20,000 bases of DNA from an uncultured virus (IMG/VR IMGVR_UViG_3300030104_003374). Lineage: Duplodnaviria > Heunggongvirae > Uroviricota > Caudoviricetes. Each line of letters starts with the position of its first letter. Position 1 is the first letter of the stretch. The stretch is taken from IMG/VR virus record IMGVR_UViG_3300030104_003374. One strand, written 5' to 3'. This document shows, in pieces, positions 1,390 through 19,010 of this stretch. The notes under the pieces were generated by a model. The model searched no databases and was not told the origin of the DNA. It was given only the letters and a program-made list of their open reading frames with translations. The position numbers and the translations under genes were made by a program.

Positions 1390-4300
1390 ATGAAACTAGC
1401 TTGTGCACCAAGTGTAAAGAGAATAAAATCTCTTATACAATATATACAAAAAGGTATAGATGAAAAAGGTAAAGATATCAACCTTAATAGAACTATGCAG
1501 TTTATTTTTGATGGTAGAAAGGCAGCTCAAGATAAAGCAAATGAAAATCTTCCTGACAGTCAAAAGCTTGATTCCACTATAGTAGCGGCTGAGTTAGTAA
1601 AGCATGTTCCGTTTATTGCGGTCAATGACTTGATGAGAAGAAATATACAAACTAATAAAATACAAGACTTTTATAATGCTCATATTCTTTTTAATAATCC
1701 TGAAACAGGTTTAGAGAATATTATAAAACAATTTACTATTGACGTAAATAGAGCACAAGCTGCTGTACAAACTAGTAATAAAGCTGCAAATACAGAATCT
1801 CAAAATAGTACAGATCAAGCAAATGAAAAAGTAGATGTAACTCCTCCTGTAAGATTAAAAACATTTTCTCCACTGACCGGAACTATTACACCTTTTGTTA
1901 AGATAAATCCTAATAACAATCAAGTTACTATTGAGAAAGAAGATAAGAATAAAACAACTATAATAAATACATTAAATGCTTTAAGTTTAGAAAACCAAAA
2001 GGGAAATGGTTTATATGATTTTATATATCAAGGTACTAGACTAAAACTTAAAGCTGTTAACTTAAATAAATTTAATAATCAAAAAGATTTTGTAGCTGAT
2101 AAAAAATACTTAGATGAATTAGATAGTACTACAAGACAAGAAGTATTACGTTCAAGAAAATTAGTAGGTTCTAAAAAGAATGTTGAAGGAGTTCTTCAAG
2201 AAAATGATAGAGCTATATTAGTGGTTACTGATCAATACGGTTATCCTATTAGATTTAGTGAGGAGGGTAATATATCTAGAGATGGTACAGGACAAATTGT
2301 ATATCAATTCTTAAGAAGTGTAAAGAATGGAAAAGTTACTGATATATATGGTAGAGAAGAACAAATAGCTGATCCTTTAATAGTTTCTGAATCATTAGGT
2401 ATAACATTTGAGGAAGCTAAAAAAAGAATAGATGAAGAGATTTCTGTACTAGAAAAGTTAAATGAAAGAGTAGTAAAAAATAAAGAAGATGTTATTTTAG
2501 ATATAACAGGTTTAACTGAAGGAGTTTCTTCTACTCTAAGTGGTAAAAAAATTAAGATAAATAGTTTAGAAGTTTTACCAGGAATGACTGAAGCAAAGGC
2601 AAAAGGAATTGTCAAGTCAATAGAAATATCTCCAAATGATGCTATAGGTATTAAATCAGGTTTTCCTTTTGTAATGATTAATGGTAATCCATATGCAGTA
2701 GATAGACCAACAATTGAAAAAGAACTTGCAACAGAAATAGCAGAAGTCTTAACTAAAGATATACCTACTTCTGAAAGAGTTGATTTTATAGATCAGTTCT
2801 TACCTATTGCAAGTGCTAATGAATATGCAAAAGGAAGAAGGAGTTATAAATTAAATGCATCTGATAATGGTTCACTTTATTTTGAATTAAGAAATGGTCA
2901 AGTAATTAATTTATCCCCAAATAAACTATCTGATATAACTCAACAAGATAAAGATACTATTGTAGAAGCTTTAACTACTGGTTGGGAAAATAGAGGTGTA
3001 GGTAGCCCAATGAACTATAATAAAAAACTACTTAGTGAAAATAGTTATGACAGGTATGATATTAAAACGGGTAAGTTTAAAAGAGACCAAGACTATATTG
3101 AATTTTTAGGATCTCAAAATGCTGATATAACATTGAGTGATTTGGATGCAGGATTTTATAATCAGCTTATTCAATTTGGTAATCCCGATAGTCAGATAAG
3201 TAAAGATGTAAACAAAGCTAATCAGAAAAGAGATACCAGAAGTACTAGAAAAAGAACTAAAGATAATTTAGTTGAATTTTTCCAAAACAATGAAGATACT
3301 AAAACTATACCTGTTAAGGTATCTTCACTGACTCAAGCAATGGCAAGACAAGATCAAAGAATGGCTTTAGAGAACCCTCTTACTGGTCCAATGTTGTCCA
3401 CTGTTGTCCGAGATGTTAATACTCTTGTAGGAGTAGAAACAGGAGATACTGTTGAATTAAAAATAGTAACAGAAGAAGATCCTGATTTTTATCCAGATAC
3501 TATTGGTGTTTATTTTAAAGGAAATAAAATAGCTGTTATAGCTGAAACTGATTTTGATAATGCTGCTGAAAAAGAAGCTTATTTAAAAAATCAAAAAGAA
3601 GAAGAAAAAATTATAACTAAAAATTTAAATAATGAGTATATAAGTAATACTTTATTATCTAAAACAAGTAGTTCAAATACTAATGCCGCTAATACATTTA
3701 AGTCAGGTAAACATTTTAGAAGAGGTTATTCTTTAAGTAAAGTTACTCAACAGCAAATTAATGATGCTAAAAAGTGGTGGGCTAATTCTCCTTTAAATAA
3801 ATACATTGAATTAGATCCACTAATTAATGCTGTTAATTCAGATCAATTTGCAAGCTTTGTTATAAATGCAGCTGCTTTGGTTGATCCTAATGCACCATTA
3901 GCAAAGGTTGGGATAACTGCTAAAGGTACAGAAGTTGATTTATATCATGAAGCATGGCATGGGTTTACACAATTATATTTAACTCAAAAACAAAAAGATG
4001 AGTTATATGCTGAAGTTAAAAAATTACCTAAGTATAAAAATAAATCTTCATTTGAAATAGAAGAAGCTTTAGCTGAAGATTTTAGAAACTATGCTAAGAA
4101 TCCTAAAATAAAAAAAGGTAGACCTAAGCGTAATACAATATTTAGAAAGATCTTAAACTTTATAAATAAATTACTTAATAAACTTCCTGGTATTAAAATA
4201 AATAATACAGATGCTAACATTGATGTATTAAGTATACCTAGTGTAAAAGAGTTATATGATAATCTTTATCTTGCTAGTTCTGATCCTAAGTATGCAGAAC

Positions 4301-7300
4301 AAATAATGAATAACTATACTCCTCTTGTACAGAATACTTATTGGTATGAATTAAATAGAGGTATAAGAAGAACAGATAATGCTAAGTTTGATGCACTAAA
4401 TGATTTTGATTCTAATAAGATTGTTAATATAATTGATAGTGTTATTTCTGATATATCAAATGAAATAAACTATGATAGACTTACTACTAATTCTGCTAAT
4501 CCTAAAGCTGGAACTTTAGGTGTTATTTTAAATAAATCTGCCCGTAAAGAAACATATGATATTGTATTAGAAAGATTTGAAAATAAGTTAAAAGATTATT
4601 ATAAAGAGTTAGATAAGATATCTAAGATGCCTTCATTTAATGATATTAAAACTCTTAGTGATATTAAAAAAAATGCAGCTGGTGTACTTAAAGGAGCTGA
4701 AGGAGTTAATGATAAATATATTTTTACTAGAGCTCAGGTTAATTCATTTGAAAATCTAAATGCTGATATAGAAAAAGGGGAAAGAATATTAGGTTCAAAT
4801 TTTAGAGGGGTAGATATTATTAGTGATTACTATACACATACTGATGCTAAAATAAAAAATAGACCTGTTGAAATAATTGTAGTTAATAAAATAGAAGATG
4901 CTGAAAGACAGTTATACAATTATAAAAGAGTAGGAGATGAAAGTTATGTAGGAGTTACGGATATAAAACCTGTACCTACTACACAGCTTACGTCTGAACA
5001 ATCTAAAATTTTAGATAACATTAGAATGTTTCAAGCAGCTATAGCTAACTGGGGTGATGAAAACTCTGGTGTTATAAAGTATCATAGAAACAAAAGTAGA
5101 TACTCTATGATTAATAAGGCTTATGATCTTACTAACACTGCTTTAATAGAAGAACAACAAGAGATAGATGAGATACTTAATCCAGAAGAAAAAGATTCTA
5201 GTATTGTTCCTGATAAGAGTATAGGTAAAAAATCTTTACTACAGTTAGCTGAGAAAGAAGCTTCATATATTATAGGAAGTTTACATAAAGTAGATATTAA
5301 TGGTAATGCTGTATTTAATGAGCAAGGTTTTAGAGAACTTGCAGACTTTAATGAAAGCTTTAATGTAATAGCTAACCTTATACAAGGTGTTAAAGATCCG
5401 GCAAAAGCTTATAATATATTAAAAGAAGCATCAAAAGATTTTCCTGTATTAAAAGAACTTATACAATTAAAGTTAACTGATCCTTCATTACCAATTAATC
5501 ATGAGTATGACTTTGATATAGTTAGTGCATTCTTTCATACATTTAAAAAACCAAAGATTGATTATTTACAATTAACTGCGTTTGAAGAGGATGGTAAATA
5601 TAACCTAGCAGTTACTCAATCTGATTTAGATGTAGACGGTATATTAAGAGAATATAGAGAAGGATTTAATGCTCAACCTGAAGGTAAATATGTTAGTAAA
5701 ACAATTGATAATCAATCAGTTCTTAAACTACAAGATGTTGTAAAAGATTTTACAGATTCTAAAGGAAGACTTAAGAAAGATAAAAGTGTTGAATTTTTAA
5801 ATGCTTTAGGTATTGATGTAGATAACATTAAAAGAATAAGAGAAGCATTTGATAAAGATGCTGTTCAATTCTATGGATTAAATTATATTCATGCTATTAC
5901 AAAAGGATTTGCAGAGATTCAACAAGCAGATCCTAATGATCCATCTGTTTCTGTTTTACAAAAACAATATGCAGAAGAGTTTGTAAAGAGTCCTGCAAAA
6001 GTTTTAGCTAAAAAGATTCCTGCTAAAATAATTACTAATCCTCTATTTAAAGGTAAACCTATAAATCAGTATACTCAAGTAAAACGTATTGCAAACTTGC
6101 AAGCAAAGTATGGAGCTATTACTAAAAATACTGGTATACTAGATGCAAAAGGAAACTTAATATTTAATGTTATTCAAGATAGTTCTGCTACTTATTTAGT
6201 AGATGATGTTAACTCAATGGATAATCTATCTAATGCTTGGTTAAACAGACAAAAAAGTAATACTCCAAATGAATTTGCTTATTTAAGTAAATTTAATCCA
6301 GAGAAAAATACTTTTACAAAAGAATCTATTTTATTAAATAGCGTATTCCGTATTAAAGATGGAGGTAATTATAATAAAAGAAAAGATGATATAGTATTAG
6401 ATCTGTTTGCTACTTCAGGTGTAAATGTATCTGACAGTGCTAAAGCAAGTAATAATACTACTAGTCTATATAGGAATGATAAATTTTCACAAGAGTTTCA
6501 TACATTTCTTTTAGACGGTGTAAAAGAATTTATAAGACATGGTGAAAAGAAATCTGCATTTGGATTAAGAGTTTTAGATTCAGGTTCAAATACAGGAAGT
6601 ATAGTAAGACCTCAAAGACCGGATGGTAAAGAGTATGATAAAAGTTTATATGTTGATGTAGACATGTTTACTCCAGAAGGAGGAGGTTCTGATTATGCAA
6701 TAAACAATATGATACTTCCTTATTTACGTTCTGAGTTTACTAGAATAAAAAGATTTGGTGAGAACAGAGCTGCTTATTCACAGCTTACTAGTTATAATAA
6801 AGAATTATTTAATGGAAGAAAAGCAGGAGAATCATTTACTATGTTTGACGGAATGCTTAGAGATACCACTAAGAATGAGTTATATGCATTACCTATATCT
6901 TCTTCAGTTGATGTCATTGATTACTTAACTAACAATAAACCTGAACTAAAAGAAAAAGTAGTAAAAGAAATAAAAGAGTACTTTGAAGAAGAAGTAAGTA
7001 AGACAAAAGAGTATGCTTTTGATAATAGTAATTATGTAGATGATGCACTAATAAAGAAATTAAATTTACCTGAGTTAGTTACTGAAGGAAAGACAGAGAA
7101 TGAAATTGAACTTTTAAAAGCAGAGAGAAAAACTTTAGAAGTTAATTCACTTTTAAAGGCATATGAGTATAATTCTTTTATTCACAATTTTGAAACAATA
7201 AATCTTATATACGGAGATCCTTTACAGTTTAACTATGTAAAAGAAGATATCACTAAACGTATTGGTGCTTCTGTAGGTGGTGGTAATAATATGATATTAG

Positions 7301-10300
7301 CACAAAACGCAATTAATTGGATTAATAAACAATGGGTAGGTAATAGAGATACTTATGCTTCTATAAATAAAAAGCCTGAATTAACTTATGGTCAAACATT
7401 CAATACAGATGTTATAGAAGATTCTATAAAAGATAGTCTTTATTTACCTATTATAGAAAAAGCAGCTAAAGAAAAGTTTGCAAAAGAGTTTCCAAAAGGA
7501 ACTAAAAAAGAATTAGATGCTTTTGTTAAATCTATTACAGATGGTTATAAAGATATGGAAGAATCAGATGGTGGAGGTTATATATCATTTGATGCTTATA
7601 GAATGTTTAAGAAAGCTTCAAACAAGTGGAGTGAAAATCAAGAAGACTTATATCAAAAACTAATAAAAGGTGAGAAGGTAGATGCAGAAGATGTTGTTGA
7701 TTTCTTTCCCATATATAAATTAGCTTACTATGGTGATATAGCAAACGCTCCAGTAACTGCTACTGCAATGCATAAGTTTGCACTTACACCTCTTATCCCT
7801 GGTATAATATCTCCTGTTCTTACTGATCTGCATAATGCAATGATGGATGAAGGACTGCATTATGTTACTTATGGAACAGGTTCTAAGATAACTGCTTTAA
7901 CCAGAGAACCTGGGAAACTTACAGATATTTTTACTGATAAAACAAGTAGTCAAATAAAAGAAATAACTGAAGAAGATAGACAAAAAGGTAAAAAATTATT
8001 TTATCCTAACGTGTTATATACTAAAGGATTAAAAGAAGTAACAGATGTAAATACCTCTTATAAATCATCAGTTACATTTCCAACACAGCAAAGACCAGTT
8101 CTTTTAGATGCTCTTGTTTCTGTTGGAGAATTATTAAATGAAGATAATAAACCGCTTCTTGATGAATACTATAAACAAATAAGAGATTATACAAAAGCTA
8201 ATCAGTTAGAACTTTTAAATGATATAGGTTTTGAAATAGATAAAAATGGAAGATTTATACCTATTGATGGTAATCTTTCTAAGCTTATGTCAGTTATTAA
8301 AAAAGAACTTGAAAAGAATGAGGTACCTAAAACTCTTAGAGATTTAGTTGATGTTACAAGAACTACCAAATCAAGAAAGGTTGATTTGTCTATATATCCT
8401 AGACCGGATGATATAGAAAAGTTATTAATGACCTTAGTACAAAAAAGATTAGTTAGATATAAAGTTAATGGTGAAGCTCTAGTACAGGGACCTGTAACAA
8501 TGTGGAAAGACTTGTGGGCAACACAAGAAGTTATAAAAGATAAAAGTAAGCAAAGAGAATTACTTGGAACAAATGGACTTGTTTTCTATACTCCAGGTAA
8601 TGCAGCTCATACTGCAATAACTATGCAAGGACCTTTTGTTAATTTATTAAATTTAGAAGATCCTGATTCTCCAGGTTTAACAATAAAAGATACTGGTGAT
8701 GTAGATAGATTAAATGAATTAATTAAAGATCCTAAATTTAGAGAAGAAAACAGAGAAGCTCTTACAATACTAGGACCTAGAATACCTATTGATTCTGCTA
8801 ACTCTATAGAAATTTTTGAAGTATGGCATTTCTTAAAGCCTGGTGGAGGTAATCAAATTATTGTCCCTACAGAAATTGTAGCTAAGGCAGGTTCTGACTT
8901 TGATGTTGATAAGTTAAATATGATGTTTCCTCATATAGGTAAAGACGGTAAGATTTTAAAAACTAAGTTTTCTGAAAAAGATTTAATATCTGAAATAGAA
9001 AGAGGAGATAAACAGAATACTGTATTAGTTGAAGACTATAAGAAGGCCAAGTTTAATGAGTTACTTAAAGTAATGAAAGATATACTTTTATTACCTGAGA
9101 ATTATATTAATCTTATTAAGCCAAATGAAACAACTCTTGTAGAAAATCAAGTAGATTATTTACAAACAGCAACTGGAGGTTATAGTAGATTTGAAAACTT
9201 ATATACTAAAGATGAAGGGAGAAGAAGTATTAAAGGTAAAAAAGCAGTAAGCCCAACGACAACTTTAAGTACATCTTATATTTTAGAAAAACATGATGCA
9301 AACTTGACAGGGGCTGGTCCTTTAGGAGTTATTGCATTAGTAAATAAAATGCATAGCTTATATAAGTCAGTAAACTTTATGATGCCTCAAACTTATATTG
9401 TTAGTAATAAATCTAGAATGATTCATAGGTTATTATTTGACCATAATAAAACTGGTAAAAATATTTCTCTTGCTCATGAATATAATAAAGATAATGCAAG
9501 AATATCTGATGTAATATCTCATTTATTAAATGCTTTATTAGATAGAGGAAAACTTCAATATCCTGTTGATTTAAAAGCTACACCTGAAGGAATTAATATG
9601 GTTAGTTATTTAGTACAAGCAGGAGTTAAACAAGATGAGGTATTTTTATATATGAATCAACCTTTAATTGTTGAATACTTAAATGAGCAAGCAAGATTAA
9701 AAGGTGCTTTTGCAAAAATAACTGGAGAAGATACTAACAAGGTACAACAGAAAGCTGCAGAAAATGTATTGAATTCTCACTTTAATGAAGAACAATTAAG
9801 TAATATAATAGCTAATGCAAACAATAGTAGAAATGGTAGTAGACTAGATAAGAAAAGACCGTTGCCAAAAATAAATACTATTCTTGAAAAGAATCTACCT
9901 TACTCTTCTCTTTATATGACTAATAAGTATTTAAAAAACGGAATTAATAAGGATGTTTTAAAAAAACAAATTGAAGATACTACTCTAATTACAAGTCCTA
10001 CAGATTTGGCTTTATTCTTAAGTTATTTAGAGACAGAGAAAGCAATAAAAGGATTACGCACATTACAACCTATTTCTACTCCAGATACAAACTACACAAA
10101 AACTCTTCAAGAACTTGATGAGGCTAAACAAGCAAGAAGTAGACTTACTGGTGAAGGATTAGATCTTACATCTGTAAATAGACTATTAGATGGATCTATA
10201 CTTACTCCTTTTAAAATTGGTAAACTAGCTGACAGTATAATATCTCAAGCAATGCCCTTAAGATCTAGCCAATGGGTAAGAGATTTTATTTCAGATCAAC

Positions 10301-13032
10301 TTAAAGATTTTGATTCACGTAATGAAATAAAAGCAAGGTTTGGTTCTGATGCGGGTTATGTTAGTAGATTCAGTTCTTCTTTTAATAATGCTATAATAAA
10401 TTCTTTATTTCAAAATAAACTATCAAGATTTGTAGATGGAAATAATAAAGTATTATTGTATCCTGAATCATACAAAGGTAATAAAGTTGAGTTTGTAGAT
10501 GGCAATCCTAATTTTGTAAACGCAGATCCAGTAACTGTTTACGAAGGTAAAATATACATTAATAAAGGAAAGCTTACAAAACAATTTAGAAATCAAGTAT
10601 TTTTAAATACAAATAATACAGAAGAAGGACATTTAAAAAGAGGACTAGATACATTTGCACCACAAGAAAATCCTTTTCCTGCATTTGAAGATTATATAAG
10701 ATACATGATGGATGTAGAGTATATGAAAGAATATCAGTATACACCAAATTCATTAAGTCAAGATAAAGATTTTAGAAACCTTGTATCAAAAACAAAAGAT
10801 TTAGATAAAGCCTTTACATCATATGTATCTCAAAAAGCTTTATCAAATACATTTAATAGAGCCTATATTTTAGGAATAACTAAGTACTCTTACTTTGATC
10901 AAGTAAATAATATTATAAATGAATTTCCAAATCTTAAAGAAGATTATCCAGTACTAGCTCAATTAGCTAAAGCTAAATTAAAAGCTGATAGAAAAGAAAA
11001 AATATTTAGTTTAAATAATAAGATGCTTGTTAAAGGTTCATTAGCAGAAGACTATGATGTTCAGTTGAGAAAGCTTGCTAATATAGGAGTAATGAAATCT
11101 TTAAATGCACAAGACAATCAAAGGATTACTGATGTATTTAAAAAGTTTTCATTAATGAGTGAATATCAAACAGGTACAGGTTTCCATCCTAATAGTCTTA
11201 TGGATATACTTAACCCTTCTCAAAAAGTAGCATTACTAAGAGGTCCTGTTAATAAAGCTGTTAATACAAATTTGAATAATATAGATTTACTTAAAATATA
11301 TAGCAGCTTAATAAATGCATATCAGTTTCAAAACTATTTGATGTCTTCATCAAAAACACAAGATGAATCAGGTATAGTTGATTTAGACGCAGAAGATATG
11401 TTACAGTATTTCCCTGATGGAAAAGAAGTTGATATAGAAGAAGTCTTTCCTGAAACTGTAGAAGAAGAAACTGCTGGGGTTAAACCTGAAAATATATCAA
11501 GTAAAGGTTCAAGCTTTGCTAAAAAATTAACTAATCCTGGAAATAACTTAGAAGTTACGTATAAAGGAAGAAAGTTTAGAAATGCGGAACATGCTTATCA
11601 AACATATAAATCAGGTGAGTTTGATCAAAAGGCTTACAATAGTACTGCATTTAAACCTATAGGTTCTAAACCTGCCAATAAAAATACAAACTATCAAACA
11701 ATGGTTGATATTCTAAAAGCTAAATTAGAACAGCACCCTGAATTAATAGAGGGTATTAATCAAAGAGGTGGATTAGCTTATATAGAACAATCTACTCATA
11801 ATGTAACAGGAGATAAATTTTGGGAATCTAAAGGTCAAAATAAATTTATTGAAGCTTTAGCTGATGCTTATAATTCTACTCAACCAGCTGCTGGGGTTGC
11901 TATATATGAACCTGTTAATATAACATTTCCTAAAAATGCATTTACCATTAAGCCTATTAAAGGTAGACCTGATAAAAAAGCAACAGCAAAATCTAAAATA
12001 GCTACTCAATTTATAGGATTTGCTGAAGGAATAGCCGGAAGTAGTACAGCTAACTATGCTCAACAAGCAGGGTTATTTGCTAATACGGGTAACTATGGAT
12101 CTGATGATGTAATATTTGTTTCTATTGGTGGTAAAAGAGGAAGTGCTCAACTACAAAAATCTCAACAAGACAGAACTATAAGAGAAGCTATTAAAGCTGT
12201 AGAAGCTGGAGCAACTATACTTACTGATAATAAAGCTTATACAGATACTAGTACATACAACACTGGTGAGAAAAGACTTTATGAAAATATGGAGGCTAAG
12301 GGTTATAACTATTCTGAAGTAACTGTAGATGGTGAAACTATAGGTACTTGGAGTAAAACTGTTCAACCAACTGGTGAGGTTACTGAAATAGAAGGTCTTG
12401 GTAAAGTATATTCTGATAATGAAGTATTATCTAAAATAGGTACAGAAGATCAATATCAAAGATATATTAACTCAAAGTTTCCAACAAGCAGGATGAAAAA
12501 TGTTGTTTATAGAGGAACTCCTAGTCAGATAATAAAGAGTGAATATGACCGTACCCCTGCTGCTAATTTAGGTAGAGGTATTTACTATGCAGGTGATATA
12601 AGAAAAGCACGTAAGTATGGTGATAATATATCTACTGCTATTGTAAATATTGAAGATCCTCTCATAGTAAGCATAAATATGAATGATAATAGAGGTTATT
12701 CATCTAACTTAAGTAAAATAAATGCTAAACAAATTACTGTTAATAAAGATAATCTTAATGGTAAAACTTCAATACTTAGTTATGAAGGTTTTCAAAAAGA
12801 GGATTACGTAAGATATAATGATTATACAGGTCATTATATAGGACCTTTAACTGAAGAGGGTCTTCCTGCAGTTAAATTTAGAGGTCAGCGTCTTACTCTT
12901 GATGAAGTTGTTTTAACTTCTCCAGAACAAGTTTATGAATTAGGAACTAAAGAAGATATACAAGGCTTTAAAGAATTTGTAAGAGATGATTGGAATGGAC
13001 CTTATCCTAAAGGACCAGTAAAATGTGTATAA
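1390..13032 (+). CDS. Giant (3880 aa) polyvalent virion RNA polymerase, crAss-like/phi14:2 gp66 type, with zincin, NADAR and ART-like accessory domains
   Basis: Uninterrupted 11.6-kb ORF. It carries the catalytic-type GSDFDVDKL with RIP ~40 aa upstream, an SDGGGYIS motif, HEAWH, and C-terminal NADAR and ART-like motifs. It sits between two other very large genes. Confidence 0.88.
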   Translation: MKLACAPSVKRIKSLIQYIQKGIDEKGKDINLNRTMQFIFDGRKAAQDKANENLPDSQKLDSTIVAAELVKHVPFIAVNDLMRRNIQTNKIQDFYNAHILFNNPETGLENIIKQFTIDVNRAQAAVQTSNKAANTESQNSTDQANEKVDVTPPVRLKTFSPLTGTITPFVKINPNNNQVTIEKEDKNKTTIINTLNALSLENQKGNGLYDFIYQGTRLKLKAVNLNKFNNQKDFVADKKYLDELDSTTRQEVLRSRKLVGSKKNVEGVLQENDRAILVVTDQYGYPIRFSEEGNISRDGTGQIVYQFLRSVKNGKVTDIYGREEQIADPLIVSESLGITFEEAKKRIDEEISVLEKLNERVVKNKEDVILDITGLTEGVSSTLSGKKIKINSLEVLPGMTEAKAKGIVKSIEISPNDAIGIKSGFPFVMINGNPYAVDRPTIEKELATEIAEVLTKDIPTSERVDFIDQFLPIASANEYAKGRRSYKLNASDNGSLYFELRNGQVINLSPNKLSDITQQDKDTIVEALTTGWENRGVGSPMNYNKKLLSENSYDRYDIKTGKFKRDQDYIEFLGSQNADITLSDLDAGFYNQLIQFGNPDSQISKDVNKANQKRDTRSTRKRTKDNLVEFFQNNEDTKTIPVKVSSLTQAMARQDQRMALENPLTGPMLSTVVRDVNTLVGVETGDTVELKIVTEEDPDFYPDTIGVYFKGNKIAVIAETDFDNAAEKEAYLKNQKEEEKIITKNLNNEYISNTLLSKTSSSNTNAANTFKSGKHFRRGYSLSKVTQQQINDAKKWWANSPLNKYIELDPLINAVNSDQFASFVINAAALVDPNAPLAKVGITAKGTEVDLYHEAWHGFTQLYLTQKQKDELYAEVKKLPKYKNKSSFEIEEALAEDFRNYAKNPKIKKGRPKRNTIFRKILNFINKLLNKLPGIKINNTDANIDVLSIPSVKELYDNLYLASSDPKYAEQIMNNYTPLVQNTYWYELNRGIRRTDNAKFDALNDFDSNKIVNIIDSVISDISNEINYDRLTTNSANPKAGTLGVILNKSARKETYDIVLERFENKLKDYYKELDKISKMPSFNDIKTLSDIKKNAAGVLKGAEGVNDKYIFTRAQVNSFENLNADIEKGERILGSNFRGVDIISDYYTHTDAKIKNRPVEIIVVNKIEDAERQLYNYKRVGDESYVGVTDIKPVPTTQLTSEQSKILDNIRMFQAAIANWGDENSGVIKYHRNKSRYSMINKAYDLTNTALIEEQQEIDEILNPEEKDSSIVPDKSIGKKSLLQLAEKEASYIIGSLHKVDINGNAVFNEQGFRELADFNESFNVIANLIQGVKDPAKAYNILKEASKDFPVLKELIQLKLTDPSLPINHEYDFDIVSAFFHTFKKPKIDYLQLTAFEEDGKYNLAVTQSDLDVDGILREYREGFNAQPEGKYVSKTIDNQSVLKLQDVVKDFTDSKGRLKKDKSVEFLNALGIDVDNIKRIREAFDKDAVQFYGLNYIHAITKGFAEIQQADPNDPSVSVLQKQYAEEFVKSPAKVLAKKIPAKIITNPLFKGKPINQYTQVKRIANLQAKYGAITKNTGILDAKGNLIFNVIQDSSATYLVDDVNSMDNLSNAWLNRQKSNTPNEFAYLSKFNPEKNTFTKESILLNSVFRIKDGGNYNKRKDDIVLDLFATSGVNVSDSAKASNNTTSLYRNDKFSQEFHTFLLDGVKEFIRHGEKKSAFGLRVLDSGSNTGSIVRPQRPDGKEYDKSLYVDVDMFTPEGGGSDYAINNMILPYLRSEFTRIKRFGENRAAYSQLTSYNKELFNGRKAGESFTMFDGMLRDTTKNELYALPISSSVDVIDYLTNNKPELKEKVVKEIKEYFEEEVSKTKEYAFDNSNYVDDALIKKLNLPELVTEGKTENEIELLKAERKTLEVNSLLKAYEYNSFIHNFETINLIYGDPLQFNYVKEDITKRIGASVGGGNNMILAQNAINWINKQWVGNRDTYASINKKPELTYGQTFNTDVIEDSIKDSLYLPIIEKAAKEKFAKEFPKGTKKELDAFVKSITDGYKDMEESDGGGYISFDAYRMFKKASNKWSENQEDLYQKLIKGEKVDAEDVVDFFPIYKLAYYGDIANAPVTATAMHKFALTPLIPGIISPVLTDLHNAMMDEGLHYVTYGTGSKITALTREPGKLTDIFTDKTSSQIKEITEEDRQKGKKLFYPNVLYTKGLKEVTDVNTSYKSSVTFPTQQRPVLLDALVSVGELLNEDNKPLLDEYYKQIRDYTKANQLELLNDIGFEIDKNGRFIPIDGNLSKLMSVIKKELEKNEVPKTLRDLVDVTRTTKSRKVDLSIYPRPDDIEKLLMTLVQKRLVRYKVNGEALVQGPVTMWKDLWATQEVIKDKSKQRELLGTNGLVFYTPGNAAHTAITMQGPFVNLLNLEDPDSPGLTIKDTGDVDRLNELIKDPKFREENREALTILGPRIPIDSANSIEIFEVWHFLKPGGGNQIIVPTEIVAKAGSDFDVDKLNMMFPHIGKDGKILKTKFSEKDLISEIERGDKQNTVLVEDYKKAKFNELLKVMKDILLLPENYINLIKPNETTLVENQVDYLQTATGGYSRFENLYTKDEGRRSIKGKKAVSPTTTLSTSYILEKHDANLTGAGPLGVIALVNKMHSLYKSVNFMMPQTYIVSNKSRMIHRLLFDHNKTGKNISLAHEYNKDNARISDVISHLLNALLDRGKLQYPVDLKATPEGINMVSYLVQAGVKQDEVFLYMNQPLIVEYLNEQARLKGAFAKITGEDTNKVQQKAAENVLNSHFNEEQLSNIIANANNSRNGSRLDKKRPLPKINTILEKNLPYSSLYMTNKYLKNGINKDVLKKQIEDTTLITSPTDLALFLSYLETEKAIKGLRTLQPISTPDTNYTKTLQELDEAKQARSRLTGEGLDLTSVNRLLDGSILTPFKIGKLADSIISQAMPLRSSQWVRDFISDQLKDFDSRNEIKARFGSDAGYVSRFSSSFNNAIINSLFQNKLSRFVDGNNKVLLYPESYKGNKVEFVDGNPNFVNADPVTVYEGKIYINKGKLTKQFRNQVFLNTNNTEEGHLKRGLDTFAPQENPFPAFEDYIRYMMDVEYMKEYQYTPNSLSQDKDFRNLVSKTKDLDKAFTSYVSQKALSNTFNRAYILGITKYSYFDQVNNIINEFPNLKEDYPVLAQLAKAKLKADRKEKIFSLNNKMLVKGSLAEDYDVQLRKLANIGVMKSLNAQDNQRITDVFKKFSLMSEYQTGTGFHPNSLMDILNPSQKVALLRGPVNKAVNTNLNNIDLLKIYSSLINAYQFQNYLMSSSKTQDESGIVDLDAEDMLQYFPDGKEVDIEEVFPETVEEETAGVKPENISSKGSSFAKKLTNPGNNLEVTYKGRKFRNAEHAYQTYKSGEFDQKAYNSTAFKPIGSKPANKNTNYQTMVDILKAKLEQHPELIEGINQRGGLAYIEQSTHNVTGDKFWESKGQNKFIEALADAYNSTQPAAGVAIYEPVNITFPKNAFTIKPIKGRPDKKATAKSKIATQFIGFAEGIAGSSTANYAQQAGLFANTGNYGSDDVIFVSIGGKRGSAQLQKSQQDRTIREAIKAVEAGATILTDNKAYTDTSTYNTGEKRLYENMEAKGYNYSEVTVDGETIGTWSKTVQPTGEVTEIEGLGKVYSDNEVLSKIGTEDQYQRYINSKFPTSRMKNVVYRGTPSQIIKSEYDRTPAANLGRGIYYAGDIRKARKYGDNISTAIVNIEDPLIVSINMNDNRGYSSNLSKINAKQITVNKDNLNGKTSILSYEGFQKEDYVRYNDYTGHYIGPLTEEGLPAVKFRGQRLTLDEVVLTSPEQVYELGTKEDIQGFKEFVRDDWNGPYPKGPVKCV
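3780..4190 (+). other. Zincin-like metallopeptidase domain in the RNAP polyprotein
   Basis: LYHEAWHGF (HExxH, 3946-3960, aa 853-857), followed by EEALAEDF (4060-4083, candidate third zinc ligand) and an amphipathic FRKILNFINKLL helix. Boundaries approximate. Confidence 0.8.
7150..9700 (+). other. Two-barrel (double-psi beta-barrel) RNA polymerase core
   Basis: SDGGGYIS (from 7564) resembles the DG motif of QDE-1/RDR-like polymerases. Lysine motifs HKFAL and GSKI follow. GPRIP (RIP 8779-8787) precedes the DxDxD motif DFDVD at 8896-8910 (aa 2503-2507), which matches the DFDID-type site of crAss-like virion RNAPs. Boundaries approximate. Confidence 0.85.
11482..11880 (+). other. NADAR (YbiA-like) domain
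   Basis: Motifs LTN..., YKGRKFRNAEHAYQTYK (AEHAYQ 11584-11601), MVDILKAKLEQHPELIEGI and GDKFWESKGQNKFIEAL correspond to the NADAR signatures (S/A)EHxxQxxK, MxxxxxxKFxQxxxL and DxxW..GxNxLG. Confidence 0.8.
11899..12363 (+). other. Uncharacterised alpha/beta domain (~155 aa) between NADAR and the ART-like domain
   Basis: Compact Gly/Ala-rich segment (IATQFIG, GSSTANY, ANTGNYGSDDVIFVSIGGKRG, AGATILTD, YNTGE) bounded by linker repeats. I cannot name the family. Confidence 0.55.
12430..12990 (+). other. ADP-ribosyltransferase-like domain (ART-PolyVal-like)
   Basis: VVYRGT (Arg codon 12511, where YHG is usual), LGRGIYYAGDIRKARKYG, VNIEDP and a late DEVVL strand (Glu codon 12904) give the strand order of ART folds in phage polyvalent proteins. 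Confidence 0.65.
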
Positions 13033-13067: not shown

Positions 13068-16000
13068 ATGCCTTGCAGAATATATATAAAAGAACAACTA
13101 GAAGATAAAGTAAAAAGAGAAACTATAGACATGAGAAATATGTCTTATAGAAATGCTCTTAATGCGGCTAGAGCTTACAATGCTAAGACGGGTTATAAAG
13201 TAATTGAAGTTTACTCTGATCAAGATGTAGGTACAGTTAGATCAATTAATATACCTACAGAATTTGTTGATTTTTGGTATCAAAAAGAAGAGATATTTGA
13301 AAATGAGCAACAAGCTAGAGAAATTCAAATGGAAGATGCTCTAAGAGCAGGTATTAAAGAAGAGCAGTTTACAGATAGATATTTATTTGATGAGTCAGTT
13401 CAAGAAGAATTAGATAGTAGTTATATAGATACTGTTGAACAAATAGCACAACAATTTAGTTTAACTAGAGAAGAACAAAAAGCAGATAGAGATTTAGAAA
13501 TAGCAACTAAACTTGCTGAAAAATTTAAAAAATCTTTTGACATTGATTATCAGATAGTTAATGAAAGTGAAGCTAAAGCACTATTAGAAAAATCACCCGT
13601 TCCTTATGATGGAGAAGGAGCTTTCTATTATCAGAATAAAGTATTTTTTGTTGAAGGAAATTTTAATTCAGACACTGTTCTTCATGAATATGCTCATCCT
13701 TTTATAAAAGCAATACAAAAAGATAACCGTGCTTTATTTGATAAGCTATACTATTCTCTTGGTGGTACTACAGAAGGTAGTAGTATTATAGAACAACTTA
13801 CAAAAAAAGCTGAAGAAAAAGGGAATCTAGATTATATTGGATCAGATAGATTTAAAGAAGAAGCTATTGTAAGATCTATTGAATTAGATGGTAATAGAAA
13901 ACTTAATAAAATTAAATCTGATGATGTAGGTTTTAAAAAGTTTATAAAGGATTTAATGTATGCTATAAGACAAGTACTTAGAAAGTTTGCTAAGAAGTTA
14001 AATCTAAAAGCATTAAATACTAATACTAAAGTAGATCAGCTTACAGACATGTTATTAGGTGACGACTTTGTTATTGATACTAGTATACTAGAAGCTTCAG
14101 ACTTTCCAGAGTTTAGAGATCAGCAATTAGACATGATAGAAGAGTTCAAAAAAGTAGAGGCCTCTAAGTTTATTAAAGCTATAAATGATTTTGATTCTTT
14201 AGCTGAACAACAACTTAGTGATTTTAGAAGAACTCCTGGTAAACTAAAAGAATCATTAAAAGGAAAAGAAGGAGAGATATTACTTAAAAATTTAAAAGAT
14301 TTTCTAGGTGATATCAATACAAAAGATATGAGTAAAATCCAAGAAGATAAATTATTGGATGCAATTGCTAACCGTCAAAAAGAATTTACTGCAAGAGCAG
14401 GTGCTATAATATCTAGTGTTGAACATATCTCTATATTTGTTGCACAAATAGATAACATATTAAAAAGTATGGAATCTAATCAGGAGTATTTAGAAGCAGA
14501 AGGAAATGCTAAACTACATTATTACACTACAATACTTGAGCAACAAAAAGCATTCTTAGGTAAAAGTTTACTTCCTACTTTAAATTTATATCCTACAACA
14601 GAAGTATCTAAAAAGATTCAAGCTGTAAAAGGATCAATTGATACAGCCCTTGACACAATACAGAAATATCAGTTTGATTATATTAAAGAATACTTAGCTG
14701 AAGGATCTGAATATATGAACTCTAACATTGTAGCTGACTTTACTAACAATGATGTTAAACTTATTTTTGAAGCATCCGGTTTATCTCAAGATGATGTAAA
14801 TAATTTTGTAAATAAAATAGTAAATAGAGCAAACAAAGGCCCTATTACTAAGTATAACATGAATGATTTAAAGAATGATTTAGGTGGAAAAGAAATTAAC
14901 CCTGGTCAAGTTAAATATTTATTTAAAGCTATACAAAACTTTAGTAGTAATTATGTATCTAAAGAAAAGTTAGATACTGTATTAAAAGGAGAAGGAGGAG
15001 ATATTGGGAAAGTAGCTGCTAACTTAAATGCGTATACACAAATAAATGACCCAGTAATTGGATCATTTGTTATGCAAACAAAAAAGTTTTTATCAGATGC
15101 TGCTATGGAAAGTCAAGAGCAGTATAATACTGTAATGAATAGATTAGTTCCATTATTAAATCAAGTAGGATATAACCCTAATGATACAACTCAGTTGCAA
15201 GATTTATTATACTTTGTAGATAAAGTAGCTGTAGTAAACAAAGAAGGTATACTTGAAGAAAAGGAAGTATATACCTTATTAAATAAATTTAAAGATTGGA
15301 GAAAAGATTATAAGCAACTTACTCATGCTAGAGAGCAGGCTGTTGAACAAGGAGATCAGCAAGCTATAAGACAAGCAAAAGCAGAGTTAGAAGAGTTTGA
15401 AGAAAAGTATATGCATAGACAATATACGCAAGAGTTTTATGACGTTCAAAAAATATGGAGATCTAATGTTGAAGTAACTAATCCTGTAACAAAGGAAGGT
15501 ATGCTAGTAGATAGAGAACTTTCTGAAGAAGCTTATGAAGAAAGAAATACAGCTTTATCAAACTTAAATGCTGCAAGAAAGAATAAGTATATGACAGAAG
15601 ATGAGACTAATCCTGTATCAGAATTAGACGAAGCTGAGAGAGAATATAAAGAACTTTATAACTTAGTAGATGATCAAGGAAACTATAAGAAAGGAGATGA
15701 TCTTAAAAAGACTTTAGTAAGACTTAAACATAGAGAAGAATCTAATAAGTTTTATACAGGAGATACTGACTTAGATGCAATACAAAGAGATCTAAATACG
15801 TTTGTAAATGTTCAATTAAAAGGTAAAGGTATTACTGATTCTAAGGAGATTGAAAGATTAATTGCAGAAGAATTTGGAAATGAGAATATGGTTGAAGCTA
15901 AGTCTCAATTATATTTTGATGAACAGAAAAGATTAAATGACCAAATAAAACAATTAACAGAAAAAGGAGGAGTAAGTGATGTTGCTAGAAGATTAGCTGA

Positions 16001-19000
16001 ATTATATAGACTAAGAGGTTTACAATTATCTGTTGTTTCAACTTTAGGTGTTCCTGATGGAACTGCTTTAACTCAAGGTCAAATACAAAAGTTAAAAAAG
16101 ACTGAAGAAGAAATAGCTAAAGTCCAAAAAGAATATGATTCTCAAACAGGTTTGACTAAAGATGAAATTGCCATACTAGAAAATTATGAAGATATAATTG
16201 CAAGAGAAGGTAAACTAGCTTCTGCAGAACAACAAAAAGAGTATGTTAGATTATCTACTGTTAAAAATAATTTAGGTCTTACAACAACTGAGCAGATTAG
16301 ATTAAGAAAATTGTTTAAAGAAAAAGCACAACTTACTAATAAGAAAGCTACTTCTGAATATATGGATATAATGAATAGTTTAGTAGGTTCTGGAATTGCT
16401 AATTTAGATTATGAAGGAAAACTAGATGATAAAGATCTTAAAAAAATTACTTTTGAGAATGCTGATGACTTTATTAATAATCCTGTTATAGAAAAGCTTA
16501 GAGATAATCCTGCATTCTCAAACTGGTTTGATCAAAATCATTATAAAAAAACAATAAGAGGTAAAGAACAATATGTAAGATTATCTTCTTGGACATCTTC
16601 AACTCCTTCACAATTAAAATATTACGAGACTACTACTTTAATTAATCCTGATACTAATCAAGAAATTGTACTTCCAGGTAAACCTAATTCTAAATACTTT
16701 AGAAGAAGAGTAAAAGATCAGTATAGAACTATACCTTTTGGACTTACTGATAAAGAGAAACAAAAATATGTTGGTACTATAATAGATAATAAAGGAAACT
16801 ATTTACCTAGAGAATATAAAGGAACAGATCCTACAGGAGCATACGATGCTAAATATAAAAATCAAGAATATTATGATTTAGAACAGCAAGATAATACTAG
16901 ATTTAAATTACTTAAAGCAGTTACTGAAGAGTTTTTAAAACTACAAGAAAATAAAGCTTACAGCTCTAAATTATATTTAGATCAACCAAGATTTAGAAAG
17001 AGAGGAACTTTAGAATATGCTCAATCAGGAAAAGTAGGTAAGAAGTCTGCTGCTATATGGTCATGGGCTAAATCTCAATTTAAAAAATCTGTGGATGATG
17101 CTGACTCAGATCCTGAGTACGGTTTTGATTTTGATCCTACTATACACGTTGTACAAACAGATGTATCAGGCCAACCTATAAGCAGAGTTCCTATACAAGG
17201 TTTATATGGATTAGATGCTAGTGATGTTTCTGGGGATGTTTTAGGAGGAATTAGTACTTATTTATATTCTTTAAATGAGCAACAAGCTTTGATAGAGAAT
17301 GAACCTATGATGAAAACTGTAGAGGGAATATTAAAGAATGAAGATAATGCTATAAAGGACATGGCAAAATCAAGTGCATTCATGAATAGAATTACAGGTT
17401 CAATGAGTTTTATTGATAAAGGTAGAAGAGGAACTAAAGAAAATAATAGAGCAGAAGCTTTACGTTATTGGATGGAAAAAGTTTGGTATAATCAAATTAA
17501 TAGTGAGTGGATAGAAAAAAATCCAGGTAAAACTAAACTTGCTAGATTTCTTATGGGTGCTGCAAGTAGATCTTTTATTGCTGGAGATTTACAATCTGCT
17601 ACTAAGAATAGATTTGGTATGACTCTTCAAAAGTTTTTAGAAGCATCTGGAGGAAATTTAATAACATATTCTTCTATGGCTAGAGGAAAACTATTAGCAG
17701 GAAAAGCTACTATGGAAATGTCAGGCAGTGAGATATATAAAGTAGGTTCTAAAGGATATTTGGCCCAACTTATGGAAGGCTTTGATGCTGTACCAGGTAA
17801 ATTTAAAAAAGATTTTGGTAGATCTTCCTCTAGAACTTTTATAAAAGATGCATTAGATGGATCATTTTTATATGATGCTAGAAGATTAATGGAAGTTAAT
17901 GCTGCACAAGAATTATTTTTTGCATTAACAGAAAATCATTTAGTTAAACAAAAGCAACCAGACGGAGAAGTAAAAGAGATATATTTAACAAAAGCTTATG
18001 AGTTAGACAGTAAAGGACAAATAAAACTTAAAGATGGAGTTGATATTGAATATAGTATGAAACCTATAAAGCATACTATAGTAGCAGAAGATACTTTAAG
18101 TACTATAGCTGATACCTATGGTATAACTGTTGAAGAGTTAAAGGAAAAAAATAAGACAATAAAAAGTGATGAGGATCTTAAGAATGGGAAAGAGATAACA
18201 ATATCTAAAGCAAGTAAGTTTAAAGACTTTAAGTTTAGAGTTGCTTCTGTAAATATGAGACTTAATGGTAACATGGCAAGTATAGATAATGCTCAAGCAA
18301 ACAAGTATTTAGGATATAACTTATTTTCATTTTATAGAAAATTTGCTTTACCTATGTTTATGGAAAGATTTCAAGCTAGTGAAAAAGAAGATAATAAATA
18401 CGGAGAAGTCTATGATTGGAATGCAGGAAATACTAAAAAAGGTATTTATATAAGTGCTTTTCAATCAATGCGTAATCTACTTACGGATTATAAAAATTAT
18501 AAAGAACTAATGACTCCTAAAGAAATAGGTGCAATGAAAAAAACTCTTGCTGAAATTGGGTCTATTTTAGCCTTAGCTATGGCTGCTATATTTATATTTG
18601 GTTACGAAGATGATGATCCTGACAGATTTAAAAAATTAGAAGAAAGACAAAAGACTTGGGGTGGATGGTTAGCTAATCAAGCTTTATACATGACTATAAT
18701 GACAAGAAGAGAAAATGAGATGTTTAATCCTCTTTTAGGTTATCAAGAAATGTTTGACTTAGTTAGTAATACTACTATTGCTACTGGACCAACTATAGAC
18801 TTATATCTTAAAATACTTAATGATATGATATACATGATTAGTGGTAATGATAAAGCTGTTTATAAAAGTGATGTAGGTCCTTATCCTTGGCAAGAAGAAG
18901 GTAGTTATAAACTATGGCATCATTTCTTTAGCATCTTTGGACTTAAAGGTAAAAATGTAAATCCTATAAAAGCTATTAAAGATCAAGAGTCATTTAGAAA

Positions 19001-19010
19001 CTTAAGATAA
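13068..19010 (+). CDS. Large (1980 aa) putative virion ejection/cargo protein with zincin, long helical region, LysM and hydrophobic helix
   Basis: Intact ORF 35 nt after the RNAP gene. It has TVLHEYAHPF + KEEAIV near the N-terminus, charged helical segments in the middle, and a LysM plus IGSILALAMAAIFIFGY near the C-terminus. Confidence 0.85.
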   Translation: MPCRIYIKEQLEDKVKRETIDMRNMSYRNALNAARAYNAKTGYKVIEVYSDQDVGTVRSINIPTEFVDFWYQKEEIFENEQQAREIQMEDALRAGIKEEQFTDRYLFDESVQEELDSSYIDTVEQIAQQFSLTREEQKADRDLEIATKLAEKFKKSFDIDYQIVNESEAKALLEKSPVPYDGEGAFYYQNKVFFVEGNFNSDTVLHEYAHPFIKAIQKDNRALFDKLYYSLGGTTEGSSIIEQLTKKAEEKGNLDYIGSDRFKEEAIVRSIELDGNRKLNKIKSDDVGFKKFIKDLMYAIRQVLRKFAKKLNLKALNTNTKVDQLTDMLLGDDFVIDTSILEASDFPEFRDQQLDMIEEFKKVEASKFIKAINDFDSLAEQQLSDFRRTPGKLKESLKGKEGEILLKNLKDFLGDINTKDMSKIQEDKLLDAIANRQKEFTARAGAIISSVEHISIFVAQIDNILKSMESNQEYLEAEGNAKLHYYTTILEQQKAFLGKSLLPTLNLYPTTEVSKKIQAVKGSIDTALDTIQKYQFDYIKEYLAEGSEYMNSNIVADFTNNDVKLIFEASGLSQDDVNNFVNKIVNRANKGPITKYNMNDLKNDLGGKEINPGQVKYLFKAIQNFSSNYVSKEKLDTVLKGEGGDIGKVAANLNAYTQINDPVIGSFVMQTKKFLSDAAMESQEQYNTVMNRLVPLLNQVGYNPNDTTQLQDLLYFVDKVAVVNKEGILEEKEVYTLLNKFKDWRKDYKQLTHAREQAVEQGDQQAIRQAKAELEEFEEKYMHRQYTQEFYDVQKIWRSNVEVTNPVTKEGMLVDRELSEEAYEERNTALSNLNAARKNKYMTEDETNPVSELDEAEREYKELYNLVDDQGNYKKGDDLKKTLVRLKHREESNKFYTGDTDLDAIQRDLNTFVNVQLKGKGITDSKEIERLIAEEFGNENMVEAKSQLYFDEQKRLNDQIKQLTEKGGVSDVARRLAELYRLRGLQLSVVSTLGVPDGTALTQGQIQKLKKTEEEIAKVQKEYDSQTGLTKDEIAILENYEDIIAREGKLASAEQQKEYVRLSTVKNNLGLTTTEQIRLRKLFKEKAQLTNKKATSEYMDIMNSLVGSGIANLDYEGKLDDKDLKKITFENADDFINNPVIEKLRDNPAFSNWFDQNHYKKTIRGKEQYVRLSSWTSSTPSQLKYYETTTLINPDTNQEIVLPGKPNSKYFRRRVKDQYRTIPFGLTDKEKQKYVGTIIDNKGNYLPREYKGTDPTGAYDAKYKNQEYYDLEQQDNTRFKLLKAVTEEFLKLQENKAYSSKLYLDQPRFRKRGTLEYAQSGKVGKKSAAIWSWAKSQFKKSVDDADSDPEYGFDFDPTIHVVQTDVSGQPISRVPIQGLYGLDASDVSGDVLGGISTYLYSLNEQQALIENEPMMKTVEGILKNEDNAIKDMAKSSAFMNRITGSMSFIDKGRRGTKENNRAEALRYWMEKVWYNQINSEWIEKNPGKTKLARFLMGAASRSFIAGDLQSATKNRFGMTLQKFLEASGGNLITYSSMARGKLLAGKATMEMSGSEIYKVGSKGYLAQLMEGFDAVPGKFKKDFGRSSSRTFIKDALDGSFLYDARRLMEVNAAQELFFALTENHLVKQKQPDGEVKEIYLTKAYELDSKGQIKLKDGVDIEYSMKPIKHTIVAEDTLSTIADTYGITVEELKEKNKTIKSDEDLKNGKEITISKASKFKDFKFRVASVNMRLNGNMASIDNAQANKYLGYNLFSFYRKFALPMFMERFQASEKEDNKYGEVYDWNAGNTKKGIYISAFQSMRNLLTDYKNYKELMTPKEIGAMKKTLAEIGSILALAMAAIFIFGYEDDDPDRFKKLEERQKTWGGWLANQALYMTIMTRRENEMFNPLLGYQEMFDLVSNTTIATGPTIDLYLKILNDMIYMISGNDKAVYKSDVGPYPWQEEGSYKLWHHFFSIFGLKGKNVNPIKAIKDQESFRNLR
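13490..14000 (+). other. Zincin-like metallopeptidase domain
   Basis: GAFYYQNKVFFV strands precede HEYAH (13683-13697, aa 206-210). EEAIV lies downstream (from 13857). Boundaries approximate. Confidence 0.8.
18069..18203 (+). other. LysM peptidoglycan-binding domain
   Basis: KHTIVAEDTLSTIADTYGITVEELKEKNKTIKSDEDLKNGKEITI fits the LysM consensus (Y/H)xVxxGDTLxxIAxxYGxxxxxLxxxN...LxxGxxLxI. Confidence 0.85.

Follow-up and report, generated by a model that had tools for sequence, protein, structure and literature searches.

Linker-coding repeats in a crAss-like phage virion RNA polymerase as probable in-frame recombination joints between payload domains

RESULTS

A giant polymerase gene ends in three payload modules, each preceded by a linker-coding repeat

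We analyzed a 20,000-nt stretch of DNA (hereafter the window) from an uncultured marine virus (IMG/VR record IMGVR_UViG_3300030104_003374), in which a giant open reading frame (ORF) codes for a 3880-residue protein that consists of a crAss-like virion RNA polymerase (RNAP) and a C-terminal train of payload modules (Table 1). Short, related repeats coding for a linker peptide precede these modules and, as judged by comparison with related phages, they are likely to be in-frame recombination joints at which payload cassettes are exchanged.

A sequence-only reading of the window had called the giant protein an RNAP, and this label is correct because the protein carries a DFDVD motif and because its residues 1871-2900 matched g066 of phage phi14:2, annotated as "Catalytic RNA polymerase subunit", in a tblastn search (E 5e-10, 21% identity, 60% of the query). 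The DFDxD motif is named for the crAss-like virion RNAPs in the abstract of bioRxiv 10.1101/2020.03.07.982082. The same region matched 67 phage records, and all the named ones were crAss-like. No match for the polymerase was obtained among PDB sequences (phmmer) and none for residues 2901-3880 among GenBank phages (tblastn), while an IMG/VR query with the body end (residues 2901-3360) gave 4 pattern matches, 0 of which were confirmed.

Table 1. Features of the window, in order of position
Feature	Position	Strand	Residues	Description	Evidence
Upstream gene	1..1377	+	458 seen	PD-(D/E)XK exonuclease-like; 5' end outside the window	
Giant ORF	1390..13032	+	3880	crAss-like virion RNAP protein with C-terminal payload train	ORF calls, tblastn
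HEAWH (HExxH)	3946..3960	+	853-857	possible zincin-type metallopeptidase site	motif; no Pfam match
DFDVD	8896..8910	+	2503-2507	DFDxD catalytic motif of crAss-like virion RNAPs	motif scan
R1	11470..11481	+		half-linker, ACT GCT GGG GTT (TAGV), directly after the conserved body end ...FPETVEEE	
M1	11482..11877	+	3365-3496	NADAR-like	PF08719 below cut-off, profile search
R2	11878..11898	+		full linker, ACT CAA CCA GCT GCT GGG GTT (TQPAAGV)	
18-nt insertion	11899..11916	+		GCTATATATGAACCTGTT (AIYEPV), directly behind R2	alignments
M2	11917..12360	+		conserved alpha/beta domain of ~150 residues, no function assigned	model, homologues
R3	12361..12381	+		full linker, GTT CAA CCA ACT GGT GAG GTT (VQPTGEV)	
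M3	12382..13029	+	3665-3880	ART-PolyVal-like, ends ...PKGPVKCV	PF18760 below cut-off, Atlas
Next gene	13068..19010	+	1980	HEYAH at residue 206, LysM domain, weak similarity to phi14:2 g065	

The same reading had described a related in-frame sequence ahead of each accessory module, with spacings of 417 and 483 nt, and this proved accurate: R1, R2 and R3 lie in the one frame of the giant ORF at those spacings, both of which are multiples of 3. The 11-mer of R1 (CTGCTGGGGTT, 11471-11481) has G or C at 7 of its 11 positions against a G+C content of 26-33% in the window, and R2 (CAACCAGCTGCTGGGGTT, 11881-11898) and R3 (CAACCAACTGGTGAGGTT, 12364-12381) agree at 15 of 18 bases, again as had been noted. 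When the degenerate pattern CAACCANCTGNTGNGGTT was allowed up to 3 mismatches, just these three sites were found in the 20 kb, compared with a mean of 0.21 in shuffled sequences, and 0 of 200 shuffles reached 3; the test is post hoc, since the pattern was derived from the same data. The linker was not seen elsewhere: there were no further copies in the window, a single match (the known one) in a 102-kb contig of a relative, and no linker motif in the remainder of the 3880-residue protein, including the region between its N-terminal half and the polymerase, or in the 1980-residue neighbor.

Payload modules of close relatives switch at the linkers

Relatives were retrieved with an M2 query from IMG/VR and a metagenome collection; a first search gave 2 loci, and two more yielded 7 from 72 and 9 from 273 candidates. 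After L036 (100% identical to the window), L029 (the L001 contig), L041 (the same as L030 and L002) and L042 (a near-duplicate of L043) had been set aside, 12 distinct relatives were left, with L038 equal to L001 in the part seen.

Three of them, L037, L039 and L040, matched the window with 94.9-97.7% nucleotide identity along the final 1.07-2.24 kb of the polymerase body, and the body end (...FPETVEE(E/D)) and the C terminus (...PKGPVKCV(Q)) are common to these close relatives. The modules that follow this body are NADAR-M2-ART in the window, M2-X1-ART' in L037, M2-X2-ART in L039 and X3-M2-X2-ART in L040, which makes four different module sets, with X1, X2 and X3 being unrelated sequences. 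M1 is missing from all three relatives, and the identity to M3 of the window at the nucleotide level was 93.6% for L039 and L040 and 69% for ART' of L037. Ahead of each module in the window, L037, L038, L039 and L040 stands a linker of the TQPxxGV type, with the DNA consensus ACT CAA CCA RCT GNT GRG GTT and the seven-residue peptide consensus TQP[A/T]x[G/E]V, coded by 18-21 nt.

Homology between the window and these relatives ended at or next to the linkers. In blastn alignments, homology with L039 and L040 stopped 2 nt before R1 and that with L037 stopped 3 nt after it (segment ends at 144 and 159 in tail coordinates versus R1 at 146-156); segments ended at 1044, 1053 or 1056 or started at 1035 or 1038, versus R3 at 1039-1056, and R3 was common to both the M2 segment and the M3 segment in the comparison with L039 and L040. 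Near R2, the segment edge fell 16 nt after the repeat, behind the 18-nt insertion GCTATATATGAACCTGTT, which is present only in the window and absent from L001, L002, L037, L039 and L040, all of which align there. This insertion ends in GTT (Val), as the linkers do, and therefore may be what remains of an earlier junction.

A further case came from the pair L039 and L040. In L040, an exact 32-nt direct repeat, TACTCAACCAGCTGGTGGGGTTAATTTAACAT, which includes the linker, flanks a cassette of 651 nt (217 codons), while L039 has one copy of the 32-nt sequence and no cassette, a pattern characteristic of cassette gain or loss through recombination between the 32-nt repeats. The two relatives were 99.9% identical over the 1360 nt that begin at the first linker and run to the stop codon, compared with 93% just upstream, which suggests a recent transfer of the entire payload tail from one polymerase backbone to another.

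Together, the four module sets and the homology breaks bear out the expectation that the presence and order of modules would switch at the repeats, and neither a fixed architecture nor breakpoints unrelated to the repeats were found, since the module sets differed and blastn edges lay at linkers. As for the proposal that the repeats are in-frame recombination junctions, its observable part stands, with breaks and cassette flanks at the linkers, and that the repeats drive the exchange is what we infer from these positions.

Contigs from other sequencing runs, aligned at 85% likeness, added further arrangements. One contig of X20, which comes from another study, joined 11898 to 12379, skipping 480 nt with 37 letters on the shorter side, and it thus places NADAR directly beside ART without M2, a fifth architecture. 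A second X20 contig spans 11469-11883 only, that is, the NADAR cassette from R1 to R2, M2 of X20 lies inside a 14-kb contig with flanks unlike those of the window, and another X20 contig begins at 12386. In the runs labeled X3 and X6 (not the module X3), the unlike sequence ahead of NADAR was a full linker, as it was ahead of ART in run X3. A second X20 joint, 11897 to 12363, had 20 letters on its shorter side, which was too short to count.

Distant relatives permute the modules around M2

Farther from the window, M2 was conserved in phages with very different polymerases. Its amino acid identity was 88% in L001 and 84% in L002, while the polymerase body of L001 was 37% identical and that of L002 could be aligned only around the catalytic site. 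The DNA of the window and that of L001 were ~95% identical across M2 only, starting at CTCAACCA(A/G)CTGCT(A/G)GGGTTG and ending at CTCAACCAAC. The payloads that adjoin M2 in other relatives include a cpYpsA SLOG domain, an AlkB-like 2OG-Fe(II) oxygenase and a RecD-like helicase, and the orders M1-M2, M2-M3, M3-M2 and M2-M3-M1 are all present among distant relatives. M2 is located N-terminal to the polymerase in L032 and L035.

The linker is conserved as DNA in close relatives and as a peptide in distant ones

In the linkers of close relatives, the Pro codon was CCA in 12 of 12 cases, compared with 24.5% in the genes of the window, and Gly was often coded by GGG, compared with 4.8%; this codon use shows identity by descent or conversion at the DNA level. 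At the two variable sites of these linkers, N1 and N2, all four combinations (GC, AG, AC and GG) occurred, a result that is consistent with exchange within the linker and also with recurrent mutation.

Distant relatives carried the peptides TQPTVQSV, TQPTSTV and AQPTSEV, coded by other codons (CCT, ACA and GTA), and the variants TQPSTSV and TQSSTSV recurred among representatives with pairwise identities of no more than 50%, in which the strict motif was observed 19 times versus 2.84 in shuffles. A loose form of the motif was found at the two edges of M2 in 13 of 40 and 17 of 40 copies, against a background of 3%; hence the motif does not occur merely at background frequency at domain boundaries but is enriched 10-14-fold at M2 edges. 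The retention of the peptide despite altered codon use in distant relatives and the enrichment of the motif indicate that the linker peptide itself is under selection, and the linker probably has a function at the protein level too, either as a spacer or as a cleavage site. For the same reason, the cleavage-linker alternative raised in the sequence-only reading may hold as well.

Separately, four linkers of close relatives read CAACCAGCTGGTGGGGTT (L037 tail nt 1060-1077, L039 208-225, and L040 214-231 and 865-882) and so contain GCTGGTGG, which we take to be the Chi octamer of Escherichia coli. A role for this Chi-like octamer in the window was dropped, as it is absent from both strands there; its occurrence in the linkers of relatives is probably a coincidence.

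Payload modules and their assignment

M1 resembled NADAR at a level below the family cut-off (PF08719, E 2.7e-4, 21.7 bits versus a cut-off of 35.1), and the best PDB match for a profile of 7 M1 homologues was E. coli YbiA (2B3W, E 0.012); Pfam did not recover NADAR at E<=1e-3 in six long representatives. M3 likewise appears to be ART-PolyVal-like, with a match to PF18760 below the cut-off (E 2.9e-5, 25.3 bits versus 31.2) and an Atlas score of 0.90, for which 23 of 30 matches lay in ART-PolyVal clusters with 174 shared features. A fold of the whole tail (541 residues, 6-row alignment) reached a mean predicted local distance difference test (pLDDT) value of 39.8, too poor for domain borders or for a comparison with NADAR and ART folds.

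M2 was modeled confidently (pLDDT 89.8) and matched no Pfam or NCBIfam family; Atlas gave a score of 0.75 with no family. No structural relative was significant, the best Foldseek match in the PDB having an E of 8.9e-3 and a template modeling (TM) score of ~0.3. M2 may be Rossmann-like: the best Z score in VIA was 5.3 (Rossmann-type methyltransferases and HAD phosphatases), within the range that the tool calls common, and no function could be assigned. The M2 profile found 726 representative clusters at E<=1e-3, and most of those listed were giant proteins with M2 at any position. M2 occurs also as a short stand-alone protein, it is interrupted by another domain in L035, and it is present in two tandem copies in L032.

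Neighboring genes and terminal cysteines

The next gene begins after 35 nt from the stop codon of the giant ORF. The exonuclease call for the upstream gene was weak (Pfam E 9e-4, below the cut-off; PHROG phrog_298, E 1.2e-7), and the part of this gene in the window showed no similarity to phi14:2 g067.

The 3880-residue protein contains just two cysteines, Cys5 (1402-1404) and the penultimate Cys3879 (13024-13026). The sole cysteine of the next protein is residue 3 (13074-13076), and that of the upstream protein, in the 458 residues seen, is the penultimate one (1369-1371, end ...DCK), so that this exonuclease-like gene carries the C-terminal Cys typical of a cargo-chain member. A similar distribution was found in phi14:2 (g067, Cys1797 of 1797; g066, Cys3 and Cys2179 of 2180; g065, Cys3) and in crAss001 (gp47, Cys2339 of 2341; gp50, Cys5, Cys1334 and Cys2404 of 2412; gp49, Cys5). 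In M2-bearing representatives of at least 2500 residues, a Cys was present in the first 8 residues in 34 of 57 and in the last 8 in 44 of 57, with an overall Cys frequency of 0.11% in the 68 representatives that have 1500 residues or more. The stop-ended giant ORFs of all 12 relatives had a Cys within their last 5 residues, whatever the last module, so the terminal Cys is kept while modules change.

The facing terminal cysteines suggest a head-to-tail tether, probably a disulfide. In cyanopodophage A4, cryo-electron microscopy is reported in the text of PMC12002296 to show a disulfide that joins two ejection proteins with the same Cys geometry, through Cys1715 close to the C terminus of gp27 and Cys5 of gp26; that phage belongs to a different group, and the crAss-like proteins are compared here by sequence.

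DISCUSSION

A model for payload exchange at the linkers

We propose that the giant protein ends in a train of payload domains that evolve independently (NADAR-like, M2 and ART-PolyVal-like) and take up its last 520 residues. The conserved 18-21 nt ahead of each domain code for the TQP[A/T]x[G/E]V linker and would at the same time offer homology for exchange. Two linker copies, whether they lie in the same genome or in different phages infecting one cell, would recombine and thereby add, delete or exchange whole domains, and exchange at internal joints would leave the reading frame and the C-terminal cysteine intact. The linker would thus be a functional peptide whose conserved coding DNA doubles as the place of cassette exchange. 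The argument for such swapping of whole domains is that one and the same in-frame sequence is found again at all the junctions, in related phages as well, and it rests on the relatives rather than on the window alone, because R1 is only a half-linker.

Delivery of the payloads together with the DNA would follow from homology with phi14:2 gp66, which its authors report, in the text of their preprint, to be carried inside the virion and to be translocated from there into the cell. By the same analogy, the giant RNAP of this marine crAss-like phage is probably injected. The payloads may act as counter-defence or host-takeover enzymes, to judge from their family names.

Several observations weigh against exchange driven by the linkers. 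Within the window, R1 lacks the CAACCA half, the repeats are short (11 nt exact between R1 and R2; 15 of 18 between R2 and R3) for a process, efficient homologous recombination, that usually needs ~20-30 nt or more, and such repeats are not rare, since the giant ORF holds 16 exact 11-mer pairs within 600 nt, R1/R2 being the most G+C-rich. No spare or orphan cassettes and no extra linker copies were found in the 20-kb window or the 102-kb contig of the relative. The use of other codons for the linker in distant relatives speaks for selection on the peptide rather than the DNA, and, of 40 diverse M2 copies, only 20 had the loose motif at either edge; where two different modules adjoin, it was present at 5 of 8 junctions (background, 5%). 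A strict pattern, TCAACCANCTGNTGNGGTT, retrieved 26 loci across IMG/VR with a G+C content of 32-67%, many with stops in the linker frame and none resembling the protein of the window, and these were judged to be chance matches; the pattern is too strict, missing even the linker of L001. The relatives are all metagenome assemblies, and those without M2 are under-sampled because all were found through M2. Finally, selection for intact domains alone would also leave the surviving junctions in linkers, so that the homology of the linker sequences could be a marker of surviving junctions, although we infer that it is the cause of exchange.

Alternative explanations

The most serious alternative, which we regard as possible but rather unlikely, is that the linker matters as a peptide, either as a protease site (for instance, for the HExxH zincin domains) or as a flexible spacer, that junctions elsewhere destroy domains, and that the likeness in DNA reflects common descent. 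It gains from the conservation of TQP[ST]xxV with different codons in distant relatives, including the recurring TQPSTSV and TQSSTSV variants and the excess of the strict motif over shuffles, and from the HExxH motifs at residue 853 of the giant protein and residue 206 of the next one. The phi14:2 preprint describes fused polyproteins that are "likely cleaved" and a zincin-like protease domain in gp65, and the text of the polyvalent-protein paper (PMC5512222) proposes autoproteolytic release of domains. A role of the peptide alone leaves unexplained the exact 32-nt repeat around the cassette, the constant length of the linker at new junctions, the non-preferred CCA and GGG codons in close-relative linkers, and the absence of the motif from all other places in the 3880-residue protein and its 1980-residue neighbor. 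A Pro directly after Gln would, moreover, be an unusual context for cleavage. Taken together, the exact 32-nt repeat and the constant linker length favor homology as the driver of exchange.

A more elaborate version of recombination at the linkers would unite both functions in a dual-purpose joint: a dedicated recombination site for trading counter-defence enzymes between co-infecting crAss-like phages that is also a zincin cleavage site freeing the payloads after ejection, which, on a Cys-tethered cargo chain, would make a train of exchangeable payloads that enters the cell before the genome or along with it. We consider this full combination a long shot.

It is very improbable that the differing architectures are chimeric metagenome assemblies, in which the assembler jumped between strains or skipped cassettes at short repeats. 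The relatives are indeed all assemblies, Logan contigs break at linkers, and an assembly graph built with a small k could go astray at a repeat of 32 nt; yet the architectures come from separate records and collections with sequence differences of their own (ART of L037 at 69%; X1, X2 and X3 unrelated), the cassettes themselves exist with linkers on both sides, and an M2 that is 84-88% identical in phages with unrelated bodies cannot be a jump within one population. That the three repeats of the window are ordinary linkers rich in Gln, Pro, Thr and Ala that resemble each other by chance, as the post hoc pattern test and the number of 11-mer pairs might suggest, can practically be dismissed, for the same 18-21-nt sequence stands ahead of modules in L001/L038, L037, L039 and L040, the motif is enriched 10-14-fold at M2 edges, and the relatives' linkers, the blastn segment ends and the 32-nt repeat already make chance unlikely.

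Relation to known systems

Polyvalent proteins, described by Iyer, Burroughs, Anand, de Souza and Aravind in 2017 (PMC5512222), are likewise giant polypeptides of mobile elements that carry many enzymatic domains, including ART-PolyVal and RNAP, in highly variable architectures, and the present protein shows this trait in its RNAP body and three C-terminal modules, which elsewhere are separate and in other orders. According to the paper, such proteins would be delivered with the DNA and may release their domains by autoproteolysis, and it raises cassette-like recombinational variability once, by analogy with polymorphic toxins; its main text uses "linker" and "shuffl" 0 times each, and no description of a repeated in-frame linker at which near-identical phages differ was found there. 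Among crAss-like virion RNAPs, phi14:2 gp66 (with gp65 and gp67) and crAss001 gp50 (with gp47 and gp49) share with the protein studied here the DFDxD motif, tblastn similarity, the cluster of giant genes and the pattern of terminal cysteines. They differ in that phi14:2 gp66 has 2180 residues, while the window protein has 3880, with a long N-terminal half and a 520-residue payload train that varies between near-identical phages.

In polymorphic toxins (CdiA, Rhs), a conserved short motif borders variable C-terminal domains, which recombination replaces. The shared feature is this conserved motif in front of variable C-terminal domains, a likeness of working and not of homology; here, there are several serial modules, each with its own joint, on a phage virion protein rather than a secreted bacterial toxin, and no orphan cassettes or immunity genes were seen (in the 20-kb window; for linker copies, also in the 102-kb relative contig). 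In the adhesin gp38/tail-fibre loci of T-even phages, short conserved (glycine-rich) motifs likewise separate variable segments and are said, in the text of PMC3157838 citing Tetart et al. 1998, to mediate genetic shuffling. The gp38 units are, by that account, loops within one receptor-binding domain, whereas here whole enzyme domains on an internal virion protein would be shuffled. The motif strings of the joints were not found in the phage literature, and neither a paper describing these joints nor one on domain shuffling in a crAss-like RNA polymerase was found among the main texts searched. Modular polyvalent proteins with motif-bounded shuffling are a known kind, to which the in-frame joints on this crAss-like virion RNAP would belong.

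Biological meaning

The first line against host defences consists of the proteins that a phage delivers along with its DNA. If the proposed joints are real, one recombination event could re-equip an injected polymerase while leaving the essential enzyme untouched. The joints would also provide a rule for finding payload domains such as M2, namely, to look between two joints, and a model from nature for exchanging the cargo of injected phage proteins, and they make the idea testable through synonymous recoding. For the crAss-like phages as a group, such exchange would explain the very varied architectures of their giant proteins.

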